Sequence record: DRR378314_1079
Strand: one strand, 5' to 3'
DNA: 64,000 nt
Part shown: positions 31,427 to 49,759 of the stretch, piece after piece
How the letters are laid out: each line of letters begins with the position of its first letter
Numbering within the stretch: the stretch's first letter is position 1
Made by a program: the position numbers and the translations under genes
The notes under the pieces: generated by a model
Databases searched by the model: none
What the model was told of the DNA's origin: nothing
Seen by the model: only the letters and a program-made list of their open reading frames with translations

Positions 31427-32152
31427 TTATCCGCTCCGGCCGAATATGCGCTCCAGAAACCCCAGTTCCCGAACATCCGGCACCGGCAGCTCGTCGAGCT
31501 GCTCCATGGCGTCGTGCCAAAACACATCGGGGATGTCAAAGTGCTCGACCGATTTGCGTTTTTCCAGGGTGTAATGGTTATGCTCCCCCGACAGACCTGC
31601 CTTTAGTAGAGCGTTGGACCAGAGGTATATGACCGAACGTATGGTGCGAAGAAGTTTGGTATAGACCTCACGTCTCCGATAGATTGCCAGCTCAGCACTA
31701 ACGAATTCGGGGCGCCATCCATCGGAGAAATGCCCCAGATTAATTGCCTGCTCGACACTGAGGCCTATCTGTTTCTGGGCGGCTGCTGTGTCATCTTTGG
31801 TCAGTGGTTCTCGATAGCCCCCACCCTTCCTGCAGGCCAGGTAAATCTGTTCCAGTGACCTGACTCCCTCTGTTAGTTCACGGTGGCCAAGGTCAGCAAT
31901 TTGCCTTTCCTCAAGCGGAACCGGCGCCCACCCATCCTCAGGCGAATTTGCCTCCATATGCCCCGCCTGGCCAAGGCGGTAGGGTGGCGTTCTGTCTTTA
32001 TCGAGATAGCCACAGAACTCTTCACGTAGCCAGGTCGCCATTTTCCGATGGCGCAACATGGTCGCCAATGTAATGGCCGAGGGAATGATGTCGCAGAGCA
32101 GGTCGTTGGCGTCCTGGGTGCGTTCCAGAAGGCGGTTGACGGATGTGGACAT
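31427..32152 (-). CDS. Hypothetical protein with AbiTii-like N-terminal domain
   Basis: N-terminal pattern ...AITLATML...WLREEFCGY...PPYR resembles AbiTii. Confidence 0.55.
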   Translation of the reverse strand: MSTSVNRLLERTQDANDLLCDIIPSAITLATMLRHRKMATWLREEFCGYLDKDRTPPYRLGQAGHMEANSPEDGWAPVPLEERQIADLGHRELTEGVRSLEQIYLACRKGGGYREPLTKDDTAAAQKQIGLSVEQAINLGHFSDGWRPEFVSAELAIYRRREVYTKLLRTIRSVIYLWSNALLKAGLSGEHNHYTLEKRKSVEHFDIPDVFWHDAMEQLDELPVPDVRELGFLERIFGRSG

Positions 32153-33679: not shown

Positions 33680-33780
33680 AATGTCTTCTCTGGTTTCAAT
33701 TCACATGCTTTTCCCTGCTCGTCTTCGCTCGCAGGTTCTGTCGCCAATGCGTGGTTAGGGGGACATTAAACTCTGTCTCG

Positions 33781-33823
33781 ATATAAGTAAATCTTGATTT
33801 AAATTGTCAATATTTACTTATAT
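33781..33823. promoter_or_regulatory. Inverted repeat with 17-bp arms, putative operator (core TTGA-N9-TCAA)
   Basis: ATATAAGTAAATCTTGA-tttaaattg-TCAATATTTACTTATAT; one mismatch between arms. Confidence 0.75.
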
Positions 33824-33887
33824 TCTGGCTGTTGTTGCATAAAAAAGGTTTCTTAATAAGGGGGCGCGAGTGGAGCAATGCTTTTGT

Positions 33888-34826
33888 TCAATGATGTAGA
33901 GCGTGCCTGATCAGTTCGGATTCGGTGGTCAGGATGTCACGAACGACCGGCGCAACTTCATTGAACCTGACTACGCCGTGAATGATGTTGGGAATGATCG
34001 AGGTGCTGACATCAACATTCGATGCGGACAACTTGGCACCCAGAAGGACATTCTCATCAAGCAGCGGGTCGAGGTCGCCAATGACCAATCGAGTTCTTGG
34101 TAACCCCCTTAAATCCGCATATATCGGTTGAGCTCGCCAGTCCCATTCATTGTTGGGAAGATAGTCGCTCCAATGCTGTTTCATAGACTCTGCTGACAAG
34201 CCAAATCCATTATAACCCCCCAGTCTTTCCCAGGATTCGGAAGAAGTGTCTTTGGAATAGACCCCGTAGAACAGCATAAGGTAACGGCAATGGGGGAGGC
34301 CGGTATCCCGTAGTGAAAGCGCCGCGCCCAGCGCCAGATTTGCACCCGCTGAATCCCCACCGATTGCGTATTCATCAATGTGCCATTTATCGGCGATGCC
34401 TCTCAAAAGGACATGCCTTATGACCGACACTACTTCGACAAATGCTGTGGGAAACTGGTTTTCCGGCGACAGTGCATAGTCTATTGATAGAATGCCAATG
34501 TTGCTCTCTCTGGCGAGCTGCCTGAGAGGAGCGTCCCATTCTTCCAGGGATCCATGACGGAAGCCCCCGCCGTGGCAGTAAAACATCAGTTTTACTTTCC
34601 TGTGACTATCGTCAGGCAGGTAAAGTTTCAGCCTTACTGATCGACCGTTAACCTGGAGGTCCAGGTAACGCTCAACCGGCAGGGGCACGCTGCCTTTTGA
34701 TGCCAGCTCCGTTATTCGTTTTAGATAGTCCCGGGTGGTTGGCGCATCGCTATTCTTTGGGGGGATAAGGTTGTTTTCCTTCAATTTGGATACGACACGT
34801 GCCAGGTCCTTGTGAATCGTATTCAT
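33888..34826 (-). CDS. Alpha/beta hydrolase of the HSL/Aes esterase family
   Basis: HGGGF, IDYALSPE, GDSAGANLA, DPLLDE, IHG; start moved to ATG 34826 because a terminator lies at 34860-34887. Confidence 0.9.
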   Translation of the reverse strand: MNTIHKDLARVVSKLKENNLIPPKNSDAPTTRDYLKRITELASKGSVPLPVERYLDLQVNGRSVRLKLYLPDDSHRKVKLMFYCHGGGFRHGSLEEWDAPLRQLARESNIGILSIDYALSPENQFPTAFVEVVSVIRHVLLRGIADKWHIDEYAIGGDSAGANLALGAALSLRDTGLPHCRYLMLFYGVYSKDTSSESWERLGGYNGFGLSAESMKQHWSDYLPNNEWDWRAQPIYADLRGLPRTRLVIGDLDPLLDENVLLGAKLSASNVDVSTSIIPNIIHGVVRFNEVAPVVRDILTTESELIRHALHH

Positions 34827-34859
34827 GGTTCCGGTCCAATTATGGTCATGATGGCGTTT

Positions 34860-34887
34860 AAAAAAATGGCGACCCTTAGGGTCGCCA
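34860..34887 (-). terminator. Intrinsic terminator after the OprD-family porin
   Basis: Minus strand TGGCGACCCT-a-AGGGTCGCCA followed by T7. Confidence 0.75.
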
Positions 34888-34935
34888 AGCAACTGCTGGG
34901 TCAACAAAGAAATAAAACAACAGACGGGATAGGGC

Positions 34936-36348
34936 TTAGAATGCGTAGTCCAGATACACCCGTGTTTCTTTACCTGTTACAACGTTTTCGGGTTGCGCTG
35001 AAACGAGCGCAACAAAATCTTCATTGATATCGTAATCGGTAAAAATAAGGCCTACTGAAAGCCCGGTGTAGTTGTGTTCATCAAAGCGGTAATAGATCCG
35101 GTATTCAGACTGGCGCTCGGTGATATCGCCGGTGTCACCCGTTAGTGGGTTCGTGGCATCGAACGAACCGCGTTTATAGGTGGCCAGCATCTGGAGGCCA
35201 TCCAGGGGGATGTCAAAGAGTTGATGATTCGAGAAACTGTATTCCACTGCCAACTGCCAGGCTTCCTCGCCGTCGTTGTTAAAGTCATTGCCGGCCCTGG
35301 TCCAGACATCGAGCCTGCCATCGGCGTTATCGGCATGGTCAAAATAGGCATAGCCTATCTGGCCATTGTCCAGTTCCGCCTCGGCTTTCGTCCATGAGGC
35401 CCCGAACCTCCAGTTATCCAGAAGGAGTCCCAAGTTTATGTTTGTCCAGTTCGCTGAGGATGTGTACCCGGCAAGTCCTTGGGCAACGTCCTGCGACCAG
35501 AGGTCACCGTTTTCCCGAAAATCATAGTATTGGGCATCAAGAAGAACGCCGCTGTTTTCCCCCAAGGGCGCCTTCAGCTCCAGGCCGTACTTGGTGTTGC
35601 GGTTAAAATCCTTGGAGACCCCTGTAGCGTAACTCAGTACAATGGCCTGAAGGTCATAGGTGAGGCCAATTGTGCTGACGTTATCGATAACGTCGCCGCT
35701 CAGGTTACGAAAGTGCTCGGTACGTCTGCGGTCGCGCGGAGATGCCCTGTCAATAAAGGCGGCATCCAGGCTGAGCTCGCCGGCCAATGGACCAACATCG
35801 AGCCCGGATTTCCCCATGTAGAGTTTGCTGCCACGGTAGCTTCCGGGAACCGCCCGAGTGTCCTTGGTCACTATTGTGCCAGCGTCAAATCTGCCCAGGC
35901 CGGCATCAAGGCCAACGTGCCAGTCGGCAGTGCGGTGCCGCAGTTTGACGTGGGCCTGCCCGATTTTCGCGAAGCCTTCGTTCCTGCCGTCTGAGTCGTC
36001 GAACAGGTCTCTGCTGTTTGTTTCGGAATGCACCTTGCCGACGCCGTAAAGCGATACCCTAACGCCAATAGCATCGCTCCAGTAGGGCGAGTCATAGTCA
36101 AGGACTGCGCCAATGGCGGTTCCTCCCAGGTCATTGCCGAACGAAAATCCTCCAAAGTTCTCTTCGATCAATTCGTTTTCAATTTCTGTGTCGATATCTA
36201 CCGCACGCAGGTAAAGATTGAGTTGGCCTTCATTGGTCGTACGATTGGCGGTATTCATATTTTCGCCAATTCTTGCTCCGTAGGAGGCGCCACTCGTGAT
36301 CATGAGTACAGAAGCGAGAGTCACTATTTTTGTATTAAAGGTTGTCAT
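34936..36348 (-). CDS. OprD/Occ-like outer-membrane porin
   Basis: Signal peptide, LDYDSPYW, DTRAVPGSYRG, DFNNDGEEAWQL..EYSF, terminal RVYLDYAF. Confidence 0.75.
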   Translation of the reverse strand: MTTFNTKIVTLASVLMITSGASYGARIGENMNTANRTTNEGQLNLYLRAVDIDTEIENELIEENFGGFSFGNDLGGTAIGAVLDYDSPYWSDAIGVRVSLYGVGKVHSETNSRDLFDDSDGRNEGFAKIGQAHVKLRHRTADWHVGLDAGLGRFDAGTIVTKDTRAVPGSYRGSKLYMGKSGLDVGPLAGELSLDAAFIDRASPRDRRRTEHFRNLSGDVIDNVSTIGLTYDLQAIVLSYATGVSKDFNRNTKYGLELKAPLGENSGVLLDAQYYDFRENGDLWSQDVAQGLAGYTSSANWTNINLGLLLDNWRFGASWTKAEAELDNGQIGYAYFDHADNADGRLDVWTRAGNDFNNDGEEAWQLAVEYSFSNHQLFDIPLDGLQMLATYKRGSFDATNPLTGDTGDITERQSEYRIYYRFDEHNYTGLSVGLIFTDYDINEDFVALVSAQPENVVTGKETRVYLDYAF

Positions 36349-36391
36349 GATTACTGTGCCTTATTGTTTTATGTTGAAGGTTTCTTTGTGG

Positions 36392-37684
36392 TCAAATTAT
36401 TGCGCCCGTAATTACGCCTCCAATGATGAATATGAACGACGACGATATGGCCCAGGGCAGTGCGAACCGTTGAAGGTCACCAACCTCAACTTTCAGCATT
36501 GAGCTGATAAGATAAATGGGCGCGATCAGGGGGCTAAGGGCATGAACGGGCATCCCCATTAGTGAAGCTCTGGCAATATTCATCGCGTCGATATTAAACT
36601 CGCTTCCAACGCCGCCCATTATTGGTACAACGCCAAAGAAGAAAGCATCGTTGGAAAGGATGAATGTCAGTGGCAGGCTGATGAAGGCAACAATCACACT
36701 GAAGTATTCGCCGGCCCCATCGGGAATGATGGCTACAAACTCTTCAGACAGTGCGGAAACCATTCCCGTACCATTGATGATTCCCGCGAAAACGCCGGCC
36801 CCGAGAATCAGGGTTGCTACCGTAAGAACGTTACCCGAGTGGGACATCAGTCTTTCTTTTTGGTCTGAAAGATTTGGATAATTAACGACCAGGGCGAGAG
36901 CTAGAGCACCAACCATAAGCGCGGGTAAGGGGGCAAAGCCCAACGCCATTGAGCCAAAGAGACCTATCGTTAAAGCGAGGTTAACCCAGAAAAGTTTTGG
37001 CCTTCTGGCAGGATTGGCATCCTGTTGGTATTCCAGTTCACCAATGTCTTTTGAAAGAGAGTTTGGATGGGTCCAGTTCAGCCTCTTTCTTTCCCGGAGG
37101 CCCAGCCAATACGCCACAAAGAATGCATAGACCACAGCAATCAGGATGGCCGGAATCAGCCCCAAAAACACTTCAGTGGCGTCCAGATTCAGTGCACTTG
37201 CGGCGCGCGCTGTGGGGCCACCCCAGGGCACAACATTTATGACCGTATTGGTCAGTAGTAGAAGAACTGCGATGATGCAGGGATTCATTCCGACTTTCAG
37301 ATAAAGCGGAAGCATAGCCGTTACGACAATCAGAACGGTACTTGTTCCGTCGCCGTCAAGAGAGGTTATAACGCCCAGAACGGCCGTATACATTGCAATT
37401 CGTAACGGGTCATCCCCAGACAAGCGGATGATTCTTTTTACTAGTGGATCGAATAGCCCCGCATCGTACATCAGAGCAAAGAAAAGGATGGCGAAGATTA
37501 GCATTATCGCAATGGGCGCCACCTCGACCATTCCTTCCATGATCATGCCGCCCAGTTCCCCACGACTCTCCGTCATGAGCCCAAAAAGTATGGGGATAAC
37601 AATCAGTGCTGTGAACGCTGATAATTTTCTCATCATGATGAGAACCATGAAGGTCACCACCATTCCGAACCCTATTAATGCCAT
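36392..37684 (-). CDS. CitMHS-family citrate:cation/H+ symporter
   Basis: FAILFF.LM.DAGLFDP, SLDGDG, N..PWGGPTARA, SNDAFFFGVVP, HALSPL; start ATG 37684. Confidence 0.92.
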   Translation of the reverse strand: MALIGFGMVVTFMVLIMMRKLSAFTALIVIPILFGLMTESRGELGGMIMEGMVEVAPIAIMLIFAILFFALMYDAGLFDPLVKRIIRLSGDDPLRIAMYTAVLGVITSLDGDGTSTVLIVVTAMLPLYLKVGMNPCIIAVLLLLTNTVINVVPWGGPTARAASALNLDATEVFLGLIPAILIAVVYAFFVAYWLGLRERKRLNWTHPNSLSKDIGELEYQQDANPARRPKLFWVNLALTIGLFGSMALGFAPLPALMVGALALALVVNYPNLSDQKERLMSHSGNVLTVATLILGAGVFAGIINGTGMVSALSEEFVAIIPDGAGEYFSVIVAFISLPLTFILSNDAFFFGVVPIMGGVGSEFNIDAMNIARASLMGMPVHALSPLIAPIYLISSMLKVEVGDLQRFALPWAISSSFIFIIGGVITGAII

Positions 37685-37772
37685 GCTTTGACCTTTTTTG
37701 TTGTGTATGTCAGTGACTGTCGAAAGGGGAGTGCCTTTCGAATGGAAGACAGTAATTCTCAATTTTTTAAAA

Positions 37773-37797
37773 GTAAAGATTGAATAAAAACGTCAAT
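37773..37797. promoter_or_regulatory. Putative operator GTAAAGATTGA-N9-TCAAT
   Basis: GTAAAGATTGA-ataaaaacg-TCAAT between CitMHS and the regulator; weaker copies at 37871-37889 and 37903-37927. Confidence 0.7.
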
Positions 37798-37948
37798 GTG
37801 TATTAAATAAGTTTGAGGAAGAGAGGCGGGAATATTGAAATGGAAGCCGAAATGGCTATCTATTCAATGATTTGAGCGTATTTTTCATTGACGGGCTATG
37901 ACGTTAAGATTGACGCTTTAACTTTACCTGGGCGCGAGTGGATAGAAG

Positions 37949-39139
37949 ATGACCAGCAACGAAGGCCTTTATTTGACGGCGGAGGAAGCTGCAGAGCGGC
38001 TCGGAGTGAGTCAGGCTACTCTGTATGCCTATGTGAGCCGAAAGAACATCCGGTCCCTGCAGATAGAGGGCTCCAAGAAACGGCGATACTGGGCCGAGGA
38101 TATTGAGCGGATCCGCAAGAAGCCAAACACACCGAAGCGGCGCTCCGGCCGCTCTCAAACGCCGTCTGCGCAAAGCGCGATCACGCTTCTGACCGACACT
38201 GGCCTATATTACAGGGGCGTGGATGTGCTTGATCTGGTGGAGACGAAGTCCGTCGAGGAGGTTGCGGAGCTGCTTTGGCAGGTACCTGGCGCCTTTGACC
38301 ATGAGCTCCTACGCACGCCGGAATCCACTGACGAACTGCTGGACCTCTATCGCGGGTATCAGGCGTCTGAGAAAGCGATTGCCCTGTTCCCAACCCTCGA
38401 ACGGGCCAACCCAAGGGCGTTTGATCTTTCGCCAGAGGGCTACGCAAGAACCGGTTCCGGGGTCGTCAGGTGGTTTGCCGCATTGGTGGGAGGAAAGAAC
38501 CGACCCACCAACGAACCCTTGCATCAGTACCTTGTTGAAGCCTGTGGGGTCGACCCGGGCTACGGAGATCTTCTGCGACGCCTGATGATCCTGTCGCTGG
38601 ACCATGAGCTTGATCACTCCACCAATACCGTGAGGGCAGCGGCCATGACCGGCGTGACGCCCTTTTACGCCGCGATTACCGGCCTGGCTTCCTATCACGG
38701 TCGTCGTGTTGCCTACGGCCGGGCGCAGACGATCAACCAGTTGCTCAACGAAATCTGCACCAGTGCCGATCCGGTCCGGCCGTTGCTGAAGCATTTTGGG
38801 GAAAAGAACGCCATTCCCGGATTCGGTGACGCTGTGCCTGTCCGGGTCGATACCAGGGTGGATTCACTGCTGTCCTCCCTGGACAGTTGTTTTGGGGAGG
38901 ACCCGGAATTTCAGCGTCTCATGAAGGCTGCCCAGGTTGCGCAAGAGCTGGTCGGCCATCCCCCGGAGTTCCTCCTGTTAGCGACCTTTGTCGGCCGGAA
39001 ATTTGGCCTGGATGGGCAGGAGCTGGCGTTGATCGGCGTGGCTCGCATGGTCGGGTGGATAGCCCACGCCTGTGAGCAGTACAACACCCAGCCTTTCTCA
39101 CGGGAACGGGCTTTCTATACCGGGGAGCTGCCAGGCTGA
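37949..39139 (+). CDS. HTH (excisionase/MerR-like) fused to a degenerate citrate synthase domain; probable transcription factor
   Basis: YLTAEEAAERLGVSQATLYAYVSR; citrate synthase remnants SAITL...LYYRG, DHEL, IPGFG, ARMVGWIAH..EQ; catalytic His/His/Asp motifs altered. Confidence 0.85.
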   Translation: MTSNEGLYLTAEEAAERLGVSQATLYAYVSRKNIRSLQIEGSKKRRYWAEDIERIRKKPNTPKRRSGRSQTPSAQSAITLLTDTGLYYRGVDVLDLVETKSVEEVAELLWQVPGAFDHELLRTPESTDELLDLYRGYQASEKAIALFPTLERANPRAFDLSPEGYARTGSGVVRWFAALVGGKNRPTNEPLHQYLVEACGVDPGYGDLLRRLMILSLDHELDHSTNTVRAAAMTGVTPFYAAITGLASYHGRRVAYGRAQTINQLLNEICTSADPVRPLLKHFGEKNAIPGFGDAVPVRVDTRVDSLLSSLDSCFGEDPEFQRLMKAAQVAQELVGHPPEFLLLATFVGRKFGLDGQELALIGVARMVGWIAHACEQYNTQPFSRERAFYTGELPG

Positions 39140-39266
39140 AATTGCTGAAGCCCAACCCGCCCGGGATTGGGCTTCGACCTCTTACCGTGCCCGCCTCGGG
39201 CGCTTGATTTCCCCTTCCTCAACTTCCTTCAGGTCTTACCGCTCCGTTCGGGGCAAGTCGTAATTA

Positions 39267-39291
39267 GTACACATTGATAAAATATATCCAC
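39267..39291. promoter_or_regulatory. Putative operator GTACACATTGA-N9-TCCAC
   Basis: Variant of the island palindrome ~60 bp upstream of the AtuA-like gene. Confidence 0.6.
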
Positions 39292-39351
39292 TTTTATTAA
39301 AAATACAAACAATTATCATGGTTGCACGTTCATAGTGGAGGAAATACAAGA

Positions 39352-40770
39352 ATGACTGAAAGAGCGGATGACCGTGTAAAGGTGATCGTTCCCTGCGGTT
39401 CGTTGGGGGCGGGTGTGCGCGAAGAGGAGCTTGAGTTCGGTCTGGCGCGGGGCGCACAGGCAATCGCGACTGATGCGGGCTCTACGGATAGTGGCGCTGC
39501 CTATCTTGCCCTTGGCAAATCGAAGAACAATCGGGGAGCGGTCAAGCGGGATATGACGCTGCTGATGAAGGCACAGGTTCGCCATGGAATCCCGATTATT
39601 GTGGGCACCAGTGGCCAGGCCGGTGGCGATCTCAACCTCAACTGGACGCGAGACATCGTCCTGGAAATCGCGGAAGAGCTGGGAGTGTCTCCCAGGATCA
39701 CGCTTATCTACAGTGAACAGGACAAAGCCAGGGTGAAAGGCCTGAATGCAGAAGGCCGCATCCGACCGCTGCCGCCGCTTGGCGCGTTGGAAGACAGTAC
39801 GATCGATTCTTGTGATCACATCGTGGCGGCCATGGGGGTGGAACCGTTCCTGGCAGCTCTCGAAGCCGGGGCGGAAATAATCCTGGCAGGAAGGGCAACG
39901 GATACCGCCGTGCTTGCCTCTTACCCCATCTGGAAGGGAATGCCGTGGGGGCCCTCCTGGCATGCCGGGAAAATCGGTGAATGCGGTGTGCAGTGTTCCG
40001 CGAACCCGACACTCGGCTCCGGGATTCTGCTGACCGTGGATGCGGAGGGCTTTCAGGTGGAGCCGTTAAGCGAGAACAATCGCTGTACACGCCATAGTGT
40101 CTCCGCCCACATGCTCTACGAGAATACGGATCCCTTCTATTTGATTGAGCCCGGCGGAATCCTGAATGTGTCCGACGCACGCTACCTGCAGATCAATGAG
40201 CGGACGGTGCGCGTCGTCAATTCACGCTGGGACCCGATGCCCTACACGTTGAAGCTGGAAGGGGCCGGCGGTGGCCTGTATCAGACGCTGATGATGGTCG
40301 GCATCCAGGACCCGGATGTTCTCAATGACATTGACGGTTTTCATGATCGCTTATTGGCAGCCCTTTACGAGCGCACGCGTAAGTGTATTCCGCCCGAGGA
40401 GCTTGGGGAGTTCCATATTTCCCTGCGTATGTACGGGTGGAATGCTGTGAGCGGTGTTGCCCCTTCGAAGGGAACATCGCCGCCTCCTGAAATCGGCGTT
40501 CTGTTTGTCGCAACTGCCGAGACGCAGGACCTCGCGAACACCATCGCCCATGCGTGCAATCCCTATTTCTTCCACTACCCGAATGTCATGGATAAGGAGT
40601 TGCCATCCTACGGTTTCCCGTTCTCGCCCGCGGACATACCCCGGGGGCAGGTCTATGAATTCAAGCTCAACCATGTCGTCGAGCTTGAGGACCCCATGGA
40701 GCTCGTGCGAACGCATTGGATTAATTTTCAGGACGCAGTCTTTTCAGATAAGGAGGTTAACAATGCCTAA
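39352..40770 (+). CDS. Acyclic terpene utilization AtuA-like (DUF1446) protein
   Basis: P.GSLGAG, DAGSTDSG..YL..G, ILAGRATDTA, WHAGKIGECG, HMLYENTDPF...PGG; RBS GGAGG. Confidence 0.8.
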   Translation: MTERADDRVKVIVPCGSLGAGVREEELEFGLARGAQAIATDAGSTDSGAAYLALGKSKNNRGAVKRDMTLLMKAQVRHGIPIIVGTSGQAGGDLNLNWTRDIVLEIAEELGVSPRITLIYSEQDKARVKGLNAEGRIRPLPPLGALEDSTIDSCDHIVAAMGVEPFLAALEAGAEIILAGRATDTAVLASYPIWKGMPWGPSWHAGKIGECGVQCSANPTLGSGILLTVDAEGFQVEPLSENNRCTRHSVSAHMLYENTDPFYLIEPGGILNVSDARYLQINERTVRVVNSRWDPMPYTLKLEGAGGGLYQTLMMVGIQDPDVLNDIDGFHDRLLAALYERTRKCIPPEELGEFHISLRMYGWNAVSGVAPSKGTSPPPEIGVLFVATAETQDLANTIAHACNPYFFHYPNVMDKELPSYGFPFSPADIPRGQVYEFKLNHVVELEDPMELVRTHWINFQDAVFSDKEVNNA

Positions 40771-41071
40771 GCTACGGGATGTCTGTCGGCACGTCCGCTC
40801 CAAGCAAGCGGGGCCTTTCTGGATCACCTACGACATATTTTTTGACGGGCGTGAAAACTTTGACCGTTACCACGACAGCCCCTCATTGGCGCCGGAACAG
40901 TTTGCAAGGATCTATGGCGCTGATGCCTCCCTGGTAAAGCGTGTTTCGGTTCCCGACCTTGAGATGGTGAAGGTTTCCCACCCGCGACCGATGCCGCAGG
41001 GCGGAATGGTCGAACGCGATATGCATGCCGGCCAGCAGTACGTTCGGCTGCTTGATGTTGCAATGGAGTAA
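40763..41071 (+). CDS. DUF4387-family small protein
   Basis: 102 aa, VRSKQAGPFWITYDIFF and ERDMHAGQQY; RBS AAGGAGG; overlaps the AtuA-like stop codon. Confidence 0.82.
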   Translation: MPKLRDVCRHVRSKQAGPFWITYDIFFDGRENFDRYHDSPSLAPEQFARIYGADASLVKRVSVPDLEMVKVSHPRPMPQGGMVERDMHAGQQYVRLLDVAME

Positions 41072-41134
41072 TCACGCATCAGGTCGTGATGCTCACGATC
41101 TGTCGTTCATATTTTCGTCACAACGGAGGCTGCC

Positions 41135-42511
41135 TTGACTGATATCAATCTGGCTCACCGGCTCGCGGAATACGCCGGTAACTTCGCTACCTCAGGTTTA
41201 CCCGAGGAGGTTGTTCGCTGTGCCAAAAGGCGTTTCCTGGACAGTTTGGCATGCACCCTCGGGGCGTATGGAACCAGGCCGGTGGAAGCGGCAATCGCGC
41301 TGGCCGCTACAGTGCCGGTGCCGGCGTCGGGTGTGTTTGGCACCACCTTGAGGACAAGCCCCGAACTGGCGGCCTTTGCCAACGGTACGATGGTGCGCGT
41401 TCTGGATTACAACGACGGTTACATGGGGCTCGAACCTGGGCACCCGAGCGACAACATTCCTGCATGTCTCGCTCTTGCTGAAGCGGAGGGTGCATCGGGT
41501 AGGGAGCTCATAGAGGCTGTGGTATTGGCCTATGAGGTGCAAATCAGGCTCCAGGATGCCGCCAGCCTGAACAGGCGTGGTTGGGACCATGTGAATTACA
41601 TCAACGTATCCGTCGCTGTAGCCGCTGCGCGACTGTTGAAACTGAATGTGTCGCAGACGGAGCAGGCGATCAATATAGCGCTTGGCGGGCACCTGGCCTT
41701 GCGGCAGGTCCGCTCCGGGGCGCTGTCGGACTGGAAAGGCTGCTCCGCCGCGAACGCGGCGCGCAATGCCGTATTTTCTGCCTTACTGGCACGTCAAGGA
41801 ATGACCGGGCCGGCTCCCATCTTCGAGGGGAGTATGGGGTTCTTCGCGCAGGTTTCCGGTGAGTTTGATCTCGACACGGCCACCTTCGCGAATTTCCATA
41901 ATGGTGACTATGCAATCCTGCGCTCGCTCACCAAAACATTCCCTACCAATGGCGAACTGCACACCGCGGTTTGGGCAGCTATCGAGTTGGGCCTTCAGAT
42001 CACCGACCTAGACACGGTTGCAGCCATTCATATTGAGACATCGGAATTCAACAAGCGGGTGTTAGCGGACACCCCTGAGAAATGGCGGCCTCAAACCCGG
42101 GAGACGGCAGACCATAGCCTGCCTTACAACGTGGCCAGAGCACTGCTGGATCACGATATCGGTCTTGACTCCTACACCCCGGGAAAAATCGCCGATCCGA
42201 CCGTCATTGCTTTGATGGACAAGACGACTGTCGATGAGGACGACGACCTGACTGGTCTCTTCCCCGGGCATCTGGCAAACAGGGTAACCATTCGACTCAC
42301 CACCGGGGAAACGCTCGTCAGTGAAAAAATCACCGGCCCCGGCTCCGTCGAAACGCCCATGACAGATAGTGACTTCGAACGGAAGTTTCGCCGCATGGCC
42401 GCTCCCCACATTGATCACTTGGCTCAGGAGGATGTGCTGGCGTTCGTGGCCAATCTGGAGCTACAAACCGACTTCGCGTCTTTGTTCGCAGGCATGGCTG
42501 CGAAAAACTGA
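41135..42511 (+). CDS. MmgE/PrpD family protein (2-methylcitrate dehydratase-like)
   Basis: AFANG.MVR.LDYND, GHPSDNI, GWDH, R.G.LSDWKG, RETADHSLPY. Confidence 0.9.
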   Translation: MTDINLAHRLAEYAGNFATSGLPEEVVRCAKRRFLDSLACTLGAYGTRPVEAAIALAATVPVPASGVFGTTLRTSPELAAFANGTMVRVLDYNDGYMGLEPGHPSDNIPACLALAEAEGASGRELIEAVVLAYEVQIRLQDAASLNRRGWDHVNYINVSVAVAAARLLKLNVSQTEQAINIALGGHLALRQVRSGALSDWKGCSAANAARNAVFSALLARQGMTGPAPIFEGSMGFFAQVSGEFDLDTATFANFHNGDYAILRSLTKTFPTNGELHTAVWAAIELGLQITDLDTVAAIHIETSEFNKRVLADTPEKWRPQTRETADHSLPYNVARALLDHDIGLDSYTPGKIADPTVIALMDKTTVDEDDDLTGLFPGHLANRVTIRLTTGETLVSEKITGPGSVETPMTDSDFERKFRRMAAPHIDHLAQEDVLAFVANLELQTDFASLFAGMAAKN

Positions 42512-42524
42512 TAGGGAATAGAAA

Positions 42525-43820
42525 ATGCCGACTTTTGCACGCCTCTATCACCAATTCGGGGTTCCCCTGGCGGTTCTGATGGTGGGAATCATGACTGCCT
42601 ATATGGCGCTTCCGCAAAAGGCTGTCGCCGGTAGCCAGCTTCCTGTCGGGCCCGAGGCCGGAGATAGGAAGTTGTCGCCTTTCTATCGCTGGTCTACGTC
42701 CTTGCCAGGGGTGCCCGGTACGCTGTTGAAAAAAGAGCCGTTGTCCCTTCAGGACACCATGGACGCCGCAGGCAAGGCATTCCGGCTCTTGCATACCTCA
42801 ACGGATGCCCGTTGGCGCTCCGGGCAAGTGCCGGTCAGCGGTACATTGTTCATTCCGAAAGGACGCCCTCCTGAGGGCGGCTGGCCGCTCGTGGCCTGGG
42901 GGCACGGCACACTTGGCATTGCAGATGTCTGTGCGCCCTCCTGGACCGGGTTTCGCGCGCGGGACGCAATGTACATGAATCGCTGGCTCAACGCCGGATT
43001 CGCAGTCGTCGCAACGGATTACCAGGGGCTGGGCGGGCACGGCCCCCATCCTTACCTTTACTGGCAGGCGGAAGGTCGCTCTGTTCTGGATTCGGCCCGG
43101 GCGGCTCTGGCCGCCAGCGAAGGGCTGGTTTCAAACCAAGTAATGCTGGCAGGGCAATCCCAGGGGGCTGGAGCGGCTTTGGGCGCAGCAATCCTGTCGG
43201 AATCCTATGCACCTGACCTCCATGTTCTCGGTGTGGTCTCCACCGGCATTAACAGCACCTTTCCGGAGGGCCCGGTTTCACTCCCTGTCCGGAACTCCCC
43301 CAATATGTTCCTGAGTTTCGCGTCGGGCGGGTTAAAAGACGACGGTGCGCGTATTGAAGAAATTGTCAACGCCAAGGGCAGGCAGGTGCTCGACATGGCA
43401 CGCAGCGCCTGTACCGCGGAGATTGGAAAGCTGGCCCATGAACTGGGCATCCGGGAACTGGCCCAGGCGTTCACCGTCTCGCTGGAAGAGCTGCAGGAGA
43501 TGCGTATTCCGGTCACGGATATGCCTATGGCCTCGGTGGACACGCCAATCCTGATTGGCACTGGCCTGGCCGACGCCACGATTGTACCAATGCGACAGTT
43601 TGCGGCGGTATCCGCGCTGTGTGCCGCCGGCAACAAGGTCACCTGGCACCGTTACGAAGGTTTGGGCCACGACGGTGCAATGCATGGCTCGTTCGATGCA
43701 TCCCTTGCCTTTGCCCGTGCCATGCTGGCAGGCGCGGACGTAGGCTCCAACTGCCCTGAGATCGCCCCGCCAGGGCCTCCGGGTGAGTTGAAGGACGGCA
43801 TTCCCTTTAACGATGACTAG
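42525..43820 (+). CDS. Exported lipase/esterase (secretory lipase-like)
   Basis: Signal peptide, GGWPLVAWGHGT.G...CAPS, ATDYQGLG, GQSQG, D in GLADA, GHDG. Confidence 0.85.
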   Translation: MPTFARLYHQFGVPLAVLMVGIMTAYMALPQKAVAGSQLPVGPEAGDRKLSPFYRWSTSLPGVPGTLLKKEPLSLQDTMDAAGKAFRLLHTSTDARWRSGQVPVSGTLFIPKGRPPEGGWPLVAWGHGTLGIADVCAPSWTGFRARDAMYMNRWLNAGFAVVATDYQGLGGHGPHPYLYWQAEGRSVLDSARAALAASEGLVSNQVMLAGQSQGAGAALGAAILSESYAPDLHVLGVVSTGINSTFPEGPVSLPVRNSPNMFLSFASGGLKDDGARIEEIVNAKGRQVLDMARSACTAEIGKLAHELGIRELAQAFTVSLEELQEMRIPVTDMPMASVDTPILIGTGLADATIVPMRQFAAVSALCAAGNKVTWHRYEGLGHDGAMHGSFDASLAFARAMLAGADVGSNCPEIAPPGPPGELKDGIPFNDD

Positions 43821-43835
43821 TTGGATTGATGAAAG

Positions 43836-45275
43836 ATGGGAAACGGTAAGACACTTTACGACAAGCACATTGATTCGCACACCGTATGCAAGCTGGATGA
43901 CGATGGGCATGTGCTCCTGTACATCGACCGCCAGGTATTGAACGAGTACACAAGCCCGCAGGCATTCACTGGCTTGCGGGAGAAGAAACGGACGGTGAGA
44001 ATGCCGGAGGCTGCGTTGGGGGTTGTCGATCATGTAAACCCGACATCACCGAACCGTATCCCGGCCATGTCCGACCCAGGCGGGGCGCGTCAGGTGTCCT
44101 ACTTTGGTGAGAACTGCCGGGATTTCGGCATAGAACTGTTCGGAGTAATGGACCGCCGTCAGGGGATCGAGCATGTCGTCGCCCCGGAGCAGGGTTTCAT
44201 CCTGCCGGGAATGGTGGTGGCCGCCGGCGACAGCCACACCACAACCTATGGCGCGCTTGGCGCCTTTGGTTTCGGTATTGGCACATCGGAAATCGAACAC
44301 CTTCTTGCAACCCAGACACTGGTGTACAAGCGCCTCAAGACCATGAGGGTACACGTTAAGGGCGAGTTGCCAGCGGGGGTGTCGTCGAAGGATATCATTA
44401 TGGGGCTCATCCGGCGTATTGGCGCCTCTGGTGCAACCGGGTACGCCATCGAATTCGCCGGCCCCGGTATAGAAGGGTTAAGCGTCGAGGCCCGAATGAC
44501 CATCTGCAATATGGCGGTTGAAGCGGGTGCGCGGGGGGCGTTTATGGCCCCCGACCAGAAAGTCTACGAGTATCTGGCCGGGCGACCGCGAGCTCCCAGG
44601 GGGGCGATGTTCGAGAAAGCGATGTCCTGCTGGGAAACCCTATACAGTGATCCGGAAGCGGAATTTGATGTTGATATCACCCTCGACAGCAGGGACCTGG
44701 CTCCAATGGTGACCTGGGGGACCAGCCCAGATCAGGCCGTCTTTATTGATGAGTCCGTTCCTGACCCCGAGGCACAATCCGACCCTGAACGCCGACGCGA
44801 CATGGAAAGGGCCCTGGCCTATATGGACCTGAAAGCGGGGCTGCCCATGACTGAGGTCAGGATTAGCCACGCTTTTATAGGCTCCTGCACAAACGCCCGA
44901 ATTGAGGACCTGCGCGCAGCCGCGTCGGTGGTAAGGAACCGACGCGTGGCAGAGGGGGTACGGGCAATGATTGTCCCCGGTTCCACAGCGGTTCGTGACG
45001 TGGCGGAAGAAGAGGGATTGGCGGAGATATTCAGGGCGGCGGGATTCGAGTGGCGCCAGTCCGGTTGTTCCATGTGCTTGGCGATGAATGATGACGTGCT
45101 GGCTCCTGGTGACCGCTGTGCATCCAGTACGAACCGCAATTTCGAGGGCCGACAGGGCGCCGGTGCACGCACCCATTTGATGAGCCCGGCCATGGTCGCC
45201 GCCGCGGCAATCACCGGCCACCTCACGGATGTCCGTTACCTTTCCGATAACAATACCATTGATGGAGGTCATTGA
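43836..45275 (+). CDS. leuC: 3-isopropylmalate dehydratase-like large subunit (aconitase family)
   Basis: TSPQAF, GIEHV, GDSHTTT, CNMAVE, [4Fe-4S] Cys in GSCTN and GCSMCLAMN, STNRNFEGRQG; no adjacent leuB, so probably not for leucine synthesis. Confidence 0.9.
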   Translation: MGNGKTLYDKHIDSHTVCKLDDDGHVLLYIDRQVLNEYTSPQAFTGLREKKRTVRMPEAALGVVDHVNPTSPNRIPAMSDPGGARQVSYFGENCRDFGIELFGVMDRRQGIEHVVAPEQGFILPGMVVAAGDSHTTTYGALGAFGFGIGTSEIEHLLATQTLVYKRLKTMRVHVKGELPAGVSSKDIIMGLIRRIGASGATGYAIEFAGPGIEGLSVEARMTICNMAVEAGARGAFMAPDQKVYEYLAGRPRAPRGAMFEKAMSCWETLYSDPEAEFDVDITLDSRDLAPMVTWGTSPDQAVFIDESVPDPEAQSDPERRRDMERALAYMDLKAGLPMTEVRISHAFIGSCTNARIEDLRAAASVVRNRRVAEGVRAMIVPGSTAVRDVAEEEGLAEIFRAAGFEWRQSGCSMCLAMNDDVLAPGDRCASSTNRNFEGRQGAGARTHLMSPAMVAAAAITGHLTDVRYLSDNNTIDGGH

Positions 45276-45886
45276 GTATGGAGCCTTTTATCTCCGTGAC
45301 CGGTGTTGCCGCACCCATGCTGGCGGCAAACATTGATACCGATGTCATCATGCCCAAGCAGTTCCTGAAAGGAATTGACCGAGCAGGCCTTGATCGAGGT
45401 GTGTTCCATGACTTGCGTTTTAACCGGGACGGGAGTGAAAACCCGGAATTCGTGTTGAATCGTCCCGATTGGCAGGGCGCGCGCTTCCTTGTCACCGGTC
45501 CGAATTTCGGGTGTGGGTCCAGTAGGGAGCATGCTGTCTGGGGGCTTCAACAATTGGGAATTCGTGGCTTGATCGGCACCACCTTTGCTGGAATCTTCGA
45601 CGACAACTGCCAGAGAAACGGAATCCTTACCATCTGTCTTGACCCGGTGTCTCACAGGATCCTGGCGGATATCATCTCGAGCCCCGGTAACAATTTGATA
45701 ACGATTGATCTAGAGGGACAGGTCGTAAACACAGAAGTGGCCGGACCTATAAAATTTTGTATCGAGCCCCTCCGGCGTGAATCTCTTATGCGGGGGTTGG
45801 ACGCCATTGCGCGAACCTTGGGGAAAGAGTCCCTGATAGAGCAATTCGAGGATAGTCATTTTGCCGATAAGCCTTGGCTTAGGTAA
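45272..45886 (+). CDS. leuD: 3-isopropylmalate dehydratase-like small subunit
   Basis: NIDTDVI.PKQFLK, NFGCGSSREHAVW, FAGIF..NC..NG. Confidence 0.9.
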   Translation: MSMEPFISVTGVAAPMLAANIDTDVIMPKQFLKGIDRAGLDRGVFHDLRFNRDGSENPEFVLNRPDWQGARFLVTGPNFGCGSSREHAVWGLQQLGIRGLIGTTFAGIFDDNCQRNGILTICLDPVSHRILADIISSPGNNLITIDLEGQVVNTEVAGPIKFCIEPLRRESLMRGLDAIARTLGKESLIEQFEDSHFADKPWLR

Positions 45887-45953
45887 CTCTCTTTGGCCTG
45901 TAAGGCTGTGACCAAATAATCCCAGCCTTACAAATGGCATATTCGTGGCGTTG

Positions 45954-46943
45954 CTAGAACTTGTACGACACACCAACCCCGACGAATGCCCCGTTTTCAT
46001 CAAAGAAAGTAATGGTCGAATCTGTCTCGCTATAGCCGGCCAGGGAAATGAAAGACCAGTTTTCCTGGCCAAACATGCCGCGATATTCATAGGAGAGGTT
46101 GGCTTTGTACGCCAAGCTATCCTGTTTTTCTCCGAATATAGGGTTCGGATCCTTGAATCCGGTATCCGACAGCCGGAAGGAGAGCCCTATACTGGACCTG
46201 TCAAACTGTCGGCCGTAAGTGAGGCCGGCAGAGTATCTGGTAAATGACATTGCATCGCCGTCGGCACGGAATCTCTGCATATAAATTGCTGGTTCAAGGA
46301 ACGAGCGGCGGTCGATTGCAAACCTTTGCTTTGCGCTGAGGAAGTACCCCTCGCCGTTGCGGTCAAGGAGTTGTTGCGAACGGCTGTCCAGAAGGCCTTG
46401 CCCGGACAGCTCCTCGTCAACGTCCTCATAATAATAGCCGAGCGAAAAGTCGATTCGAGAATTCAGCAGGTTGTCATAATCAAGCAGGAACGCATTGCCT
46501 GTCACCTCGGTCTCTTCTCGATGTTGATCAACCAGGTAGGGGTTTTCCCAGGTTTCGTCATCTACAACGGTTGGCATTACAGAGAGTTCGATCGAAGAGT
46601 CTTCACCAAATCGCAGGCCGGCCCCCAGCTTAAGGGCCAAAGCACCTACCACAATGTCGTCCCGGGACGTTCCTGCAAATACGGAATATTTACTGTCGAT
46701 GCCAAAGTTATACCGTATCTGTCCGAGGGGCAGGATGAAGGACTTTGAGTCGGACTCCGCCTCGGAATCGAGAGGCGACGATTTTCGATCGTTCTCTGTG
46801 TTGAAGTTGCTCCGTTTCTGGTTAAGGCCTGAAATTATGGCCATTTCTCCCTCAAACGTTCCTTCGGCAAGGCCGGGCGCAGAGTGCCCGATGGATATGA
46901 TAATCCCCAAACACTTGGCGTTAATAAAGCGTTTCATGGTCAA
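45954..46943 (-). CDS. Outer-membrane beta-barrel protein (DUF2860-like)
   Basis: Signal peptide, alternating beta strands, WENPYL...R.ET, NPIFG, terminal VSYKF. Confidence 0.65.
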   Translation of the reverse strand: MTMKRFINAKCLGIIISIGHSAPGLAEGTFEGEMAIISGLNQKRSNFNTENDRKSSPLDSEAESDSKSFILPLGQIRYNFGIDSKYSVFAGTSRDDIVVGALALKLGAGLRFGEDSSIELSVMPTVVDDETWENPYLVDQHREETEVTGNAFLLDYDNLLNSRIDFSLGYYYEDVDEELSGQGLLDSRSQQLLDRNGEGYFLSAKQRFAIDRRSFLEPAIYMQRFRADGDAMSFTRYSAGLTYGRQFDRSSIGLSFRLSDTGFKDPNPIFGEKQDSLAYKANLSYEYRGMFGQENWSFISLAGYSETDSTITFFDENGAFVGVGVSYKF

Positions 46944-47090
46944 GTACGACTCCCTTGCTGGTCAAATCAGTAGCGAAAGTATGTGTTTTGAGACGGGAAT
47001 TATTCTGGCGGAATGTTCTTGCATTTGGGTCTCGCGGCGAGTGCCCTTAATCTCGCGCTGTTGGCTATACTAATCGGTCCAAGGATATCG

Positions 47091-47115
47091 GTAAACATTG
47101 ATATAAAGCGTCAAT
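47091..47115. promoter_or_regulatory. Putative operator GTAAACATTGA-N9-TCAAT
   Basis: GTAAACATTGA-tataaagcg-TCAAT between the divergent OMP and dehydrogenase genes. Confidence 0.7.
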
Positions 47116-47173
47116 ATATATGTTTTTTAAGTAAGCTGTTAGGATGGAACGGAAATGCTTAGGAGAGCCGTTC

Positions 47174-48148
47174 ATGAAGAAAAAGGTGTTGGTTTACAGT
47201 CGTGTAACACCGGATATGACCAGGGTATTCGAGGACAGTTACGATTTTATTTTTATCGATGGGAAATCCGCTGATTTTGAGACAGAGCTGAAAAGCAGGC
47301 TAGGGGAGGTGCATGGAATTGTTGGCGCAAATGTATCGCTGGACAGCAGTTTACTGGATGAGGCGCCGAACCTGGAGGCGGTATCCACTGTATCGGTTGG
47401 CTATGACAAGTACGACCTGGATTATCTGAACAGGCGGGGGATTCCCCTAACAAATACTCCGGATATTCTAACGGAGACCACCGCCGACCTGGCATTCACA
47501 TTGCTCATGTGCTGTGCGCGGCGGGTTGTCGAGCTTGATAATTGGACAAAAGGTGGCGCGTGGAACCGAATTATCGATGAATCGAAGTTTGGGGTCGATA
47601 TTCATCGCAAAAGAATTGGAATCATCGGAATGGGGCGAATAGGAGCGGCGATTGCCCGTCGAGCGCACTTCGGTTTTGGCATGGAGGTTCTGTATTGCGG
47701 TCGGGAGAAAAAAGCCACCATAGAAGAGGAGGTTGGGGCGAAATACCGGAGCTTCAAACAGCTCATCTCCGAATCGGACTTTATTTTACCAGTGGTTCCA
47801 CTCAACCGGGATACACGTGGCTTGATAGGTGAAGCCGAGTTCGAATTGATGAAGGCGAGCGCGATACTTGTGAATGTATCCCGTGGGGCGATCATCGATG
47901 AGGCGGCGCTTGTAGACGCCCTGGGGAAAAAGCGGATTTTCGCGGCCGGGCTGGATGTATATCATAATGAGCCTCTTCAAGATTCACCGCTTTTCGGGTT
48001 AGATAATGTGACCACCCTTCCGCATATCGGCTCAGCTACCGGGGAGACCAGGGAGGCAATGGCGGTGTATGCCTTGGAGAGCCTGATTGCTGTCCTTGAA
48101 GGTAAGGTTCCGGAGAATATAGTTAATTCTCCCGAGTCAAATAGCTAA
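47174..48148 (+). CDS. D-2-hydroxyacid dehydrogenase (GhrB/2-ketogluconate reductase-like)
   Basis: SVGYD, NTPDILTETTAD, GMGRIG, NVSRG, GLDVY..EP, PHIGSAT; RBS AGGAG. Confidence 0.92.
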   Translation: MKKKVLVYSRVTPDMTRVFEDSYDFIFIDGKSADFETELKSRLGEVHGIVGANVSLDSSLLDEAPNLEAVSTVSVGYDKYDLDYLNRRGIPLTNTPDILTETTADLAFTLLMCCARRVVELDNWTKGGAWNRIIDESKFGVDIHRKRIGIIGMGRIGAAIARRAHFGFGMEVLYCGREKKATIEEEVGAKYRSFKQLISESDFILPVVPLNRDTRGLIGEAEFELMKASAILVNVSRGAIIDEAALVDALGKKRIFAAGLDVYHNEPLQDSPLFGLDNVTTLPHIGSATGETREAMAVYALESLIAVLEGKVPENIVNSPESNS

Positions 48149-48424: not shown

Positions 48425-48542
48425 GCCGCACGCTCTCACTGCTGGTTTGCGAGGCTGAGGACCACCCGAACTGGTCGAGAACGACCGGGGCGGCAAAGGC
48501 GATCACCAGGGCCGCGACAAACGCTGAAATCATAACCTTCAC
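48417..48542 (-). CDS. 41-aa single-TM small protein of the fdh operon
   Basis: MKVMISAFVAALVIAFAAPVVLDQFGWSSASQTSSESVRLD; GTG overlaps the TGA of the gamma subunit; RBS GGGAGG. Confidence 0.65.
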   Translation of the reverse strand: MKVMISAFVAALVIAFAAPVVLDQFGWSSASQTSSESVRLD

Positions 48543-49711: not shown

Positions 49712-49759
49712 GAGAGCACTCCAGCGGAATGAACAAAAAGAATCCGTTGCCTCAATGAA

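Follow-up and report, generated by a model that had tools for sequence, protein, structure and literature searches.

A palindrome joined to a promoter -35 box as the putative operator of a regulator with a citrate-synthase fold

Introduction

Which protein acts on a palindrome that recurs in the promoter regions of a gene island, and how does it act? The question is raised by a 64,000-nucleotide stretch of DNA from sequence record DRR378314_1079 (hereafter the window, meaning the whole stretch), which contains a 16-kb cluster of genes for transport and catabolism (hereafter the island). Each of the four promoter regions of the island holds one copy of TTGA-N9-TCAA, a 17-bp palindrome joined to what appears to be the -35 box of a promoter. 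The initial annotation of the window took this motif to be the operator of a protein encoded within the island, in which a helix-turn-helix (HTH) domain precedes a citrate-synthase domain, and to tie the separately oriented transcription units into one regulon. We consider it likely that the element is a composite promoter module, that the palindrome within it serves the island's own regulator as operator, and that six transcription units make up the regulon.

The palindrome in the window

The four copies reported initially (33787-33811, 37773-37797, 39267-39291, and 47091-47115) agree exactly with the sequence in letters and coordinates, and the 9-bp spacer is indeed constant in all four (Table 1). 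Site 1 is longer than first noted, comprising two 17-nt arms (33781-33797 and 33807-33823) with 94% complementarity, and it carries GTAAAT arms on both sides. There are four intergenic regions longer than about 180 bp in the island, each with exactly one site. Allowing up to two mismatches, the extended pattern GTAMANNTTGA-N9-TCMAY has eight matches in the window, i.e., the four sites read on both strands and no others, compared to 1.56 expected.

We further scored the window with a symmetrised palindromic weight matrix trained on 34 sites from other genomes, with none from the window. Sites 1, 4, 2, and 3 took the first four ranks (38.2, 33.7, 31.2, and 23.5 bits), and the fifth rank was a match of only 10.9 bits beyond the island, at 6411. 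When the window was shuffled 30 times within 200-bp blocks, so as to preserve local composition, the top score was 9.4 bits on average and 16.3 bits at most, lower than any of the four sites; these scores should be read with the reservation that the training sites were chosen by the exact core, which makes the test circular for the core columns of the matrix, while the flank columns, and the 4-mer dyad scan described below, are not circular. Since the local-composition shuffles never match the four site scores, AT-rich intergenic composition does not explain the motif. The matrix scan found no convincing copy outside the island in the 64-kb window, consistent with what had been noticed initially. 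No Rfam family reached its gathering score between 32000 and 48500, so the palindromes are not accounted for by any known RNA element. The recurring element is real.

It could be supposed that there is no regulatory site at all, and that the motif reflects either a chance likeness of AT-rich intergenic DNA or a mere pair of back-to-back -35 boxes. The exact core by itself is only mildly unusual in the window, where it occurs three times, always in intergenic DNA of the island, against 0.91 expected, and at least three times in 6 of 100 shuffles; moreover, the outer arm does resemble a -35 box. However, none of 100 shuffles reached the eight matches of the full pattern, the site scores lie beyond those of the composition-preserving shuffles, the motif is kept across bacterial classes, and the inner TTGA hexamers have no -10 partner (see below). 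Therefore, we regard this explanation as extremely unlikely.

The weaker copies that had been proposed just before the regulator gene (37871-37889 and 37903-37927), and read as a sign of autoregulation, did not stand up. The first (37872-37888) is a core with one mismatch that falls outside the 25 best matrix matches, and one-mismatch cores occur in the window at chance frequency (17 found, 21.5 expected). The second (core at 37910) has a good left arm only, GTTAAGATTGA, and its score of 8.3 bits lies inside the range of the shuffles. Autoregulation within the window would instead rest on site 2, which the regulator shares with the CitMHS operon. Between site 2 and the regulator start there is also an imperfect inverted repeat (37834-37868; 15-nt arms, 73% complementary, with a 5-nt loop), which has ATTGA and TCAAT at its ends separated by a 25-nt gap. 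An exact half-site, GTAAAGATTGA, was encountered at 36211-36221 in the region coding for the end of the OprD signal peptide; having no partner arm, it is probably there by chance.

Conservation of the motif beside the regulator

A homology search with the regulator returned 1835 proteins with an E-value of at most 0.001 among 8000 scored candidates. The 120 best relatives listed are 274-447 amino acids long, most of them with both HTH_17 and Citrate_synt domains, and their source annotation is 'citrate synthase'. They include P0001, which is 97% identical to the regulator; the nearest named relatives, proteins of Pseudomonas and Stutzerimonas with about 58% identity, are annotated 'citrate synthase' as well. 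For comparison of gene neighborhoods, genomic loci were retrieved with an alignment of 21 relatives; protein similarity to the regulator was the only criterion, and the motif played no part in selection. The sample consisted of the best 80 hits (77 loci) of about 550 regulator loci; it spans Alpha-, Beta-, and Gammaproteobacteria, as judged from record titles, and the closest regulator in it is 59% identical to that of the window.

Among the 76 loci with enough upstream DNA, 44 have the exact core in the 300 bp preceding the regulator gene; its density is 2.1 per kb in these regions and 0.031 per kb in the other 1.48 Mb. When the extended form and a TGTA/TCCA variant are counted, a site is found upstream of the regulator in 54 of the 76. 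We then examined every inverted dyad of 4-mers with gaps of 0-20 in these upstream 300-bp regions, with 3690 other 300-bp windows as background, in a non-redundant set of 61 loci (14 Bradyrhizobium-type loci, L023, and L057 having been removed as near-duplicates and L072 for lack of upstream DNA). TTGA-N9-TCAA was the top dyad, present in 30 of the 61 loci with 0.71 expected, followed by TCAA-N2-TTGA (22 of 61); in 200 dinucleotide shuffles of the same upstream regions, TTGA-N9-TCAA appeared on average in 0.26 and at most in three loci. In addition, a tblastn search of a plasmid collection placed the motif just before the regulator start in the Agrobacterium fabrum C58 plasmid pAt and in a plasmid of Cupriavidus oxalaticus. 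When 11 CitMHS-regulator intergenic regions were aligned, conservation was highest in the block GTAAATCT(T/G)GATTT, a result that bears on site 2. In many loci the site ends 1-20 bp ahead of the regulator start codon, a position that fits autorepression.

The genes around the regulator recur as well. A homologue of AtuA lies within 10 kb of it in 54 of the 77 loci, usually together with DUF4387. Genes for CitMHS, PrpD-like, LeuCD-like, esterase or lipase, OprD, and 2-hydroxyacid dehydrogenase proteins often accompany them. Beyond the regulator's own upstream region, sites were paired with AtuA (15 site-gene pairs), CitMHS (9), and LIP (4). The open reading frames (ORFs) flanking further sites (n = 37) include 12 TonB-dependent receptors, five DUF1302 proteins, four TauD-type dioxygenases, two MFS transporters, two MetA-like outer-membrane proteins, and seven families seen once each, as well as five ORFs without a family. 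Judging from these predicted families, the constant theme of the loci is outer-membrane uptake combined with inner-membrane transport and AtuA-DUF4387. No homologues of the 2HCT and DUF2860 proteins of the window were found in any of the 77 loci, and these two look like local recruits to the regulon.

Both central claims of the initial annotation gain support from this footprinting: loci chosen by the regulator alone carry the motif, and its sites precede AtuA, CitMHS, and outer-membrane genes, in keeping with one regulon of separately oriented units. Thus, TTGA-N9-TCAA is very probably the operator of the island's HTH-citrate-synthase regulator, with these units as its regulon.

Alternatively, the sites might belong to another regulator, either global or encoded elsewhere, and merely neighbor the HTH-citrate-synthase gene. 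The letters of the half-sites resemble boxes of the FNR/ANR type, TTGAT-N4-ATCAA. However, N9 is the spacing of the top dyad and N4 is absent from the 20 best dyads, the motif tracks the regulator gene even though the other genes of the loci differ widely, and the 64-kb window holds no significant copy elsewhere. Further, the sites that flank a plasmid-borne paralogue of the regulator share this architecture but have another half-site (TCGA), as expected of a cognate pair. We therefore consider it very improbable that another protein owns these sites.

The outer arm as a predicted promoter element

The motif is asymmetric, and its orientation relative to the regulated genes seemed inconsistent; this was resolved by reading the outer arm as a -35 box. 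We aligned 78 distinct extended sites (74 from other genomes and four rows from the window) with GTMAA placed on the left, and read the opposite strand. On that strand the arm becomes TTKAC plus one base, i.e., a -35-like hexamer, in the form TTTACn in the window and TTGACn in alpha- and betaproteobacteria. A hexamer of the form nAnnnT follows 16-18 bp past the outer arm in 54 of the 78 sites, in 41 of them at exactly 17 bp; the opposite side gives 10 of 78, and 5000 random positions give 10.1%. In the consensus of the gammaproteobacterial group, TTTAC and TA...T are kept at 80% or more. An ORF of at least 150 amino acids starts within 300 bp downstream of 77 sites (median distance 44 nt), compared to 63 on the other side, although this test discriminates poorly in GC-rich DNA. 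The gap between palindrome and -35 is 2 bp, invariant over three proteobacterial classes. If the usual 7-nt distance from -10 to the start of transcription is assumed, the center of the palindrome is predicted near -46 of promoters that read outward.

Therefore, the GTAAA arm would largely be the -35 hexamer of an outward-reading promoter, and the motif as first described would combine an operator and a promoter element. The possibility raised at the outset, that the motif simply consists of back-to-back -35 elements, holds for the outer arm and fails for the inner TTGA/TCAA pair, since the inner hexamers have no -10 partner 16-18 bp away and are thus not -35 boxes.

A helix-turn-helix domain on a dead citrate-synthase fold

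The regulator is the only DNA-binding (HTH) protein among the 13 island genes scanned. It matches Pfam Citrate_synt (PF00285) with 108.7 bits (cutoff 27), HTH_17 (PF12728) with 32.3 bits (cutoff 27), and, marginally, MerR_1 (PF13411) with 23.6 bits (cutoff 21.6), and the NCBIfam excisionase domain TIGR01764 with 32.9 bits (cutoff 28.8). By contrast, it falls far under the cutoffs of all 12 NCBIfam citrate synthase models (332-594), the best of which gives 65.9 bits against a cutoff of 594. In an AlphaFold2 model (mean predicted local distance difference test, pLDDT, 84; predicted template modeling score 0.76), residues 1-57 form a winged HTH and residues 76-396 a helical domain, and the linker between them (58-75) has a pLDDT below 50. 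All matches listed by Foldseek in the PDB for residues 76-396 are citrate or 2-methylcitrate synthases, with template modeling (TM) scores of 0.59-0.72, and no solved chain spans a fusion of HTH and citrate synthase. The C-terminal coiled-coil dimerization helix of MerR proteins is not present in the model, in which the disordered linker leads directly to the citrate-synthase fold.

For the catalytic site, the regulator was aligned with a solved citrate synthase and with the true citrate synthase of the window (1589-3088). The three catalytic motifs are replaced, with RRVAYGRA for GP(L/A)HGGA, GFGDA for GFGHR, and PEFLLL for PNVDFY; the His of the first aligns with A255 or Y256, the His of the second with D294, and the Asp of NVDFY with L342. 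We take the residues concerned to be the counterparts of H274, H320, and D375 of pig citrate synthase. In 21 aligned family members, His at 255/256 and Asp at 342 were found in none, and His at 294 in two. By contrast, H219, R303, and R385 are present in 21 of 21; these presumably correspond to H238, R329, and R401 of the pig enzyme, to which we ascribe substrate-binding roles. Given the replaced catalytic residues and scores far below the enzyme cutoffs, the regulator is, from its sequence, a pseudo-enzyme in which a carboxylate pocket appears to be at least partly kept. Both the citrate-synthase fold and the palindrome lead us to expect a dimer.

The true citrate synthase, encoded far from the island, has all three catalytic motifs intact (464 bits to Citrate_synt). 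It adjoins a family III coenzyme A (CoA) transferase gene and a GntR/FCD regulator gene (418-3896), with no operator-like site nearby.

The HTH match also raises the possibility of a MerR-type promoter, in which the palindrome would sit inside an over-long -35/-10 spacer of 19-20 bp and activation would proceed by untwisting of the DNA. Besides the matches to MerR_1 and HTH_17, site 1 has an inner TTGACA followed, 19 bp on, by TATATC on the gene-ward strand, as seen by eye. However, TATATC lacks the final T, and on neither strand of sites 2 and 4 did inspection by eye reveal a -10-like hexamer at a distance of 19-20 bp from the inner TTGAnn. The conserved -10 lies 17 bp past the outer arm, which puts the palindrome upstream of the -35 and outside the spacer, and the protein model has the citrate-synthase fold after a disordered linker in place of a MerR-type coiled coil. 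It is thus highly improbable that the sites work in this way. Visual inspection of both strands at three sites (1, 2, and 4) for MerR-style promoters built on the inner TTGA gave no consistent -10, and such promoters were discarded.

Activation or repression

Taken together, we hypothesize the following mechanism. The inner TTGAY-N7-RTCAA would be the operator, and the regulator would be a one-component transcription factor with a winged HTH of the excisionase/MerR type, a flexible linker, and a dead citrate-synthase fold. The outer GTAAA arm would provide the -35 of a sigma-70 promoter firing outward, with a -10 about 17 bp further on and the operator centered at about -46. Six units would form the regulon, i.e., 2HCT, CitMHS-OprD-esterase, the regulator itself, AtuA-DUF4387-PrpD-lipase-LeuCD, DUF2860, and the dehydrogenase, with a putative role in the uptake and breakdown of a citrate-like carboxylate. 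Dimerization via the citrate-synthase fold would place two HTH domains on the two half-sites, and a ligand, either a carboxylate or a CoA ester, could bind in the substrate pocket that is retained and induce the domain closure typical of the fold, which would alter the grip on DNA or RNA polymerase. We favor ligand-dependent activation from the fixed -46 position, together with negative autoregulation where the site overlaps the regulator start; it is a close call, and we put the odds at about even or slightly better. The invariant 2-bp gap to the -35 in three classes and the weak promoters of the gammaproteobacterial type point to activation, whereas the near-consensus TTGACA in betaproteobacteria, the symmetric arms of site 1, and sites 1-20 bp from the regulator ATG speak for repression, if only of the regulator gene.

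In the second case, the operator and the regulator would be the same, and the protein would be a classical repressor sitting on palindrome and -35, released when a substrate or intermediate binds in the citrate-synthase-like domain. Several observations favor such a repressor: site 1 is symmetric out to its GTAAAT arms with a gene on one side only, which suggests contact between protein and arm; sites abut the regulator start codon in many loci; and in some loci another site, at a distance of about 67-78 bp, would be located downstream of the predicted start. However, a 2-bp gap this constant would more typically reflect a stereospecific contact with RNA polymerase, and the promoters of the window and of Pseudomonas are weak, with 7-8 of 12 consensus positions by eye, and fail the consensus scan. 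Classical repression is a tentative but serious possibility.

Besides the partial circularity of the matrix, some points weigh against the composite module with an activating operator. A strict match upstream of the regulator is missing in 22 of 76 loci, although several of these have near matches, and others have sites at AtuA with the regulator as the last gene of the unit. Site 3 has no TTTAC arm on the AtuA side, and the candidate -10 there gives a center at -44 instead of -46. A consensus promoter scan of the four regions returned nothing at three of them and only unrelated candidates at the fourth, i.e., the proposed promoters are sub-threshold, and no promoter could be placed for the regulator gene. 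Finally, alpha- and betaproteobacteria have a near-consensus TTGACA-17-GATAGT (before AtuA in L049, L054, and L058), which looks like a repressed rather than an activated promoter.

Comparison with known systems and implications

Among known regulators, the MocR/GabR type consists of a winged HTH fused to a fold-type-I aminotransferase domain. It is similar to the present regulator, as we envisage it, in being a one-component factor in which a whole enzyme fold serves as sensor and dimer interface, in having a long linker to the HTH, and in controlling its own gene together with an adjacent, often divergent, catabolic operon. The differences are that the putative sensor here has the all-helical citrate-synthase fold, that the HTH is excisionase/MerR-like HTH_17 rather than GntR, and that the half-sites of the putative operator, inverted and 9 bp apart, are joined to a -35 box. 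MerR proteins share an HTH that reaches the MerR_1 cutoff and a palindromic operator close to the -35; unlike theirs, the present operator lies upstream of the -35 of a predicted promoter with a normal 17-bp spacer, and the protein has a citrate-synthase-fold effector domain and no coiled coil. Citrate and 2-methylcitrate synthases share the fold of residues 76-396 and several substrate-pocket residues, whereas the regulator has lost the catalytic His, His, and Asp and gained an N-terminal DNA-binding domain. The layout recalls that of LysR-type regulators, with the regulator divergent from a target operon, a site common to both, and, in many loci, a site that touches the target -35 and overlaps the 5' region of the regulator gene; however, the families are unrelated, and the window has a single palindrome instead of a pair of recognition and activation sites. 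Promoters of the FNR/CRP class II type likewise have a TTGA...TCAA inverted repeat just upstream of or over the -35, but the gap there is 4 bp and the center -41.5, in contrast to 9 bp and about -46 here, and the protein family is unrelated.

In the full-text literature searched, which leaves most subscription journals outside its scope, we found no description of the regulator architecture, of DUF4387, or of the motif. DUF1446 is termed a protein of unknown function in one article (PMC4682846). The use of an enzyme fold as a sensor, a palindromic operator, and a divergent layout are familiar concepts, while this fold in the role, the family, the operator, and the regulon appear to be undescribed.

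In its widest form, our interpretation is that the window exposes the operator, promoter geometry, and core regulon of a large family that uses a dead citrate synthase as a small-molecule sensor, that the family controls a conserved pathway of AtuA-like, DUF4387, PrpD-like, and LeuCD-like functions, with uptake across the outer and inner membranes, for a citrate-like tricarboxylate or its esters, and that paralogues share one promoter architecture but change the half-site (TTGA, TGTA, or TCGA) and are thereby insulated from one another; we give this broad proposal an even chance. If the operator assignment holds, a widespread type of regulator, whose members genome annotation now counts as enzymes, would for the first time become accessible to functional study, and this family would be linked to the conserved cluster of AtuA-like and DUF4387 genes. 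The assignment would also offer a compact, portable promoter-operator module, the ligand of which would name the substrate of the pathway, and would add one more enzyme fold to those recruited as sensors.

Operator variants and paralogues

A second variant, GTMAATC-TGTA-N9-TC(C/A)A, occurs in gamma- and alphaproteobacteria, often beside a TTGA-type site in the same locus, and from this co-occurrence one protein seems to accept both half-sites. Site 3 of the window, with TTGA on one side and TCCA on the other, is a hybrid of the two types.

The Cupriavidus oxalaticus plasmid (L079) carries a second, paralogous HTH-citrate-synthase-like gene beside AtuA, DUF4387, and a TctC-type binding protein gene. 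This paralogue is flanked on both sides (2561-2584 and 3823-3853) by sites with a GTCAAT arm, a 9-bp gap, and TCGA half-sites, although GC-rich DNA will often contain TCGA-N9-TCGA by chance. The TCGA half-sites may represent a change of specificity that insulates the paralogues.

In a subfamily from Bradyrhizobium (36-38% identity) and Agrobacterium (32%), the gene divergent from that of the regulator encodes a true citrate or methylcitrate synthase paralogue instead of AtuA. In Bradyrhizobium the site ends one base ahead of the regulator ATG and an in-frame stop codon lies just upstream, which suggests a start that is leaderless or covered by the operator. In Caulobacter, according to a preprint, citB and citC are adjacent paralogues, and citC failed to complement an E. 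coli gltA mutant (bioRxiv 10.1101/799742). By analogy, this pair might be the same arrangement as in the Bradyrhizobium/Agrobacterium subfamily.

In the CitMHS-regulator intergenic regions of six loci (L003, L005, L007, L008, L011, and L028; about 9860-9930), a GTACAYRTTGA arm lies 21 bp, or two helical turns, upstream of the GTAAATCT(T/G)GA arm. An example is GTAAATCTGGA in L003, and the right half-site in these regions is TGCA, TTCA, or TCTA in place of TCAA. The 21-bp spacing suggests tandem occupancy by two dimers.

Gene content of the island and its surroundings

The genes were assigned with Pfam and NCBIfam (Table 1), and the starts of CitMHS (37684), AtuA (39352), DUF4387 (40763), and the dehydrogenase (47174) were refined by profile alignments and ribosome-binding sites. 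The ATG of the dehydrogenase is preceded by the ribosome-binding sequence TAGGAGAG, and the NCBIfam GhrB alignment begins at residue 11 of its ORF. The 2HCT transporter scores 425 bits to the NCBIfam CitS model, under the cutoff of 600.

Table 1. Positions of the sites, predicted promoters, and genes; positions refer to the window, except in rows that name other loci (L numbers), where they refer to those loci.
Feature	Position	Strand	Remarks
Site 1	33781..33823	.	near-perfect 43-bp palindrome; core TTGA-N9-TCAA 33794-33810; upstream of 2HCT
Site 2	37773..37803	.	core 37780-37796; between CitMHS (-) and regulator (+)
Site 3	39267..39297	.	core 39274-39290, TCCA replacing TCAA; 5' of AtuA operon; weakest copy
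Site 4	47091..47121	.	core 47098-47114; between DUF2860 (-) and 2-hydroxyacid dehydrogenase (+)
Weak copies proposed initially	37872..37927 (37872-37888; 37903-37927)	+	at chance level
Predicted 2HCT promoter	33763..33791	-	-35 TTTACT (33791-33786), 17-bp spacer, -10 TAATGT (33768-33763); palindrome center about -46
Predicted CitMHS operon promoter	37749..37777	-	-35 TTTACT (37777-37772), 17 bp, -10 TACTGT (37754-37749)
Predicted DUF2860 promoter	47067..47095	-	-35 TTTACC (47095-47090), 17 bp, -10 TAGTAT (47072-47067)
Predicted dehydrogenase promoter	47117..47145	+	hexamer TATATG, 17 bp, -10 TAGGAT (47140-47145); right side of site 4
Candidate -10 of AtuA operon promoter	39314..39319	+	TATCAT, by eye; palindrome center about -44; uncalled by consensus scan
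2HCT, CitS-like 2-hydroxycarboxylate transporter	32336..33679	-	Pfam 2HCT 410 bits; target of site 1
CitMHS operon	33888..37684	-	target of site 2
CitMHS transporter	36392-37684	-	start ATG 37684 fits TIGR00784 alignment
OprD-family porin	34936-36348	-	Pfam/NCBIfam
Abhydrolase_3 esterase	33888-34907	-	Pfam/NCBIfam
Regulator gene	37949..39139	+	396 amino acids; Pfam HTH_17, MerR_1, Citrate_synt
Two hairpins 3' of regulator stop codon	39147-39175, 39187-39203	+	T-rich run after second
AtuA operon	39352..45886	+	target of site 3
AtuA-like	39352-40770	+	
DUF4387	40763-41071	+	
MmgE/PrpD-like	41135-42511	+	
LIP-family lipase	42525-43820	+	
LeuC-like	43836-45275	+	LeuC/LeuD-like dehydratase gene
LeuD-like	45272-45886	+	LeuC/LeuD-like dehydratase gene
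DUF2860 outer-membrane protein	45954..46943	-	start TTG 46943 or ATG 46937; leftward target of site 4
GhrB-like D-2-hydroxyacid dehydrogenase	47174..48148	+	rightward target of site 4
TGTA-variant sites, L001, L002, L004, L019, L020	about 9964-9990		
TGTA-variant sites, L012, L031, L033	about 9973-9996		
TGTA-variant site, L079	8958-8985		
Bradyrhizobium/Agrobacterium subfamily sites, L063-L077	about 9970-10000		
Bradyrhizobium/Agrobacterium subfamily site, L078	8947-8985		

The hairpins behind the regulator gene separate it from the AtuA operon. Within this operon, DUF4387 starts 8 nt ahead of the AtuA stop codon (40763-40770) with AAGGAGG 5' of the start, and the two genes are probably translationally coupled; AtuA and DUF4387 also adjoin each other in most related loci.

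The left border of the island is formed by an AbiTii-family (abortive infection) gene (31427-32152). Also on the left are choline sulfatase with a BCCT transporter and a Fec-type iron uptake set, and the right side (48539-63000) is occupied by a molybdopterin oxidoreductase cluster that includes cytochrome b561, a NarJ-like chaperone, DUF3305/DUF3306, FdhD, MobA, and MoeA. These flanking molybdopterin, choline sulfatase/BCCT, and Fec-type genes are unrelated to the motif. The G+C fraction is 0.47-0.51 in the transporter and porin part of the island (33000-38000) and at its right end (46000-48000), compared to 0.57-0.61 in the flanks, and the low values of these outer units are compatible with piecemeal acquisition.

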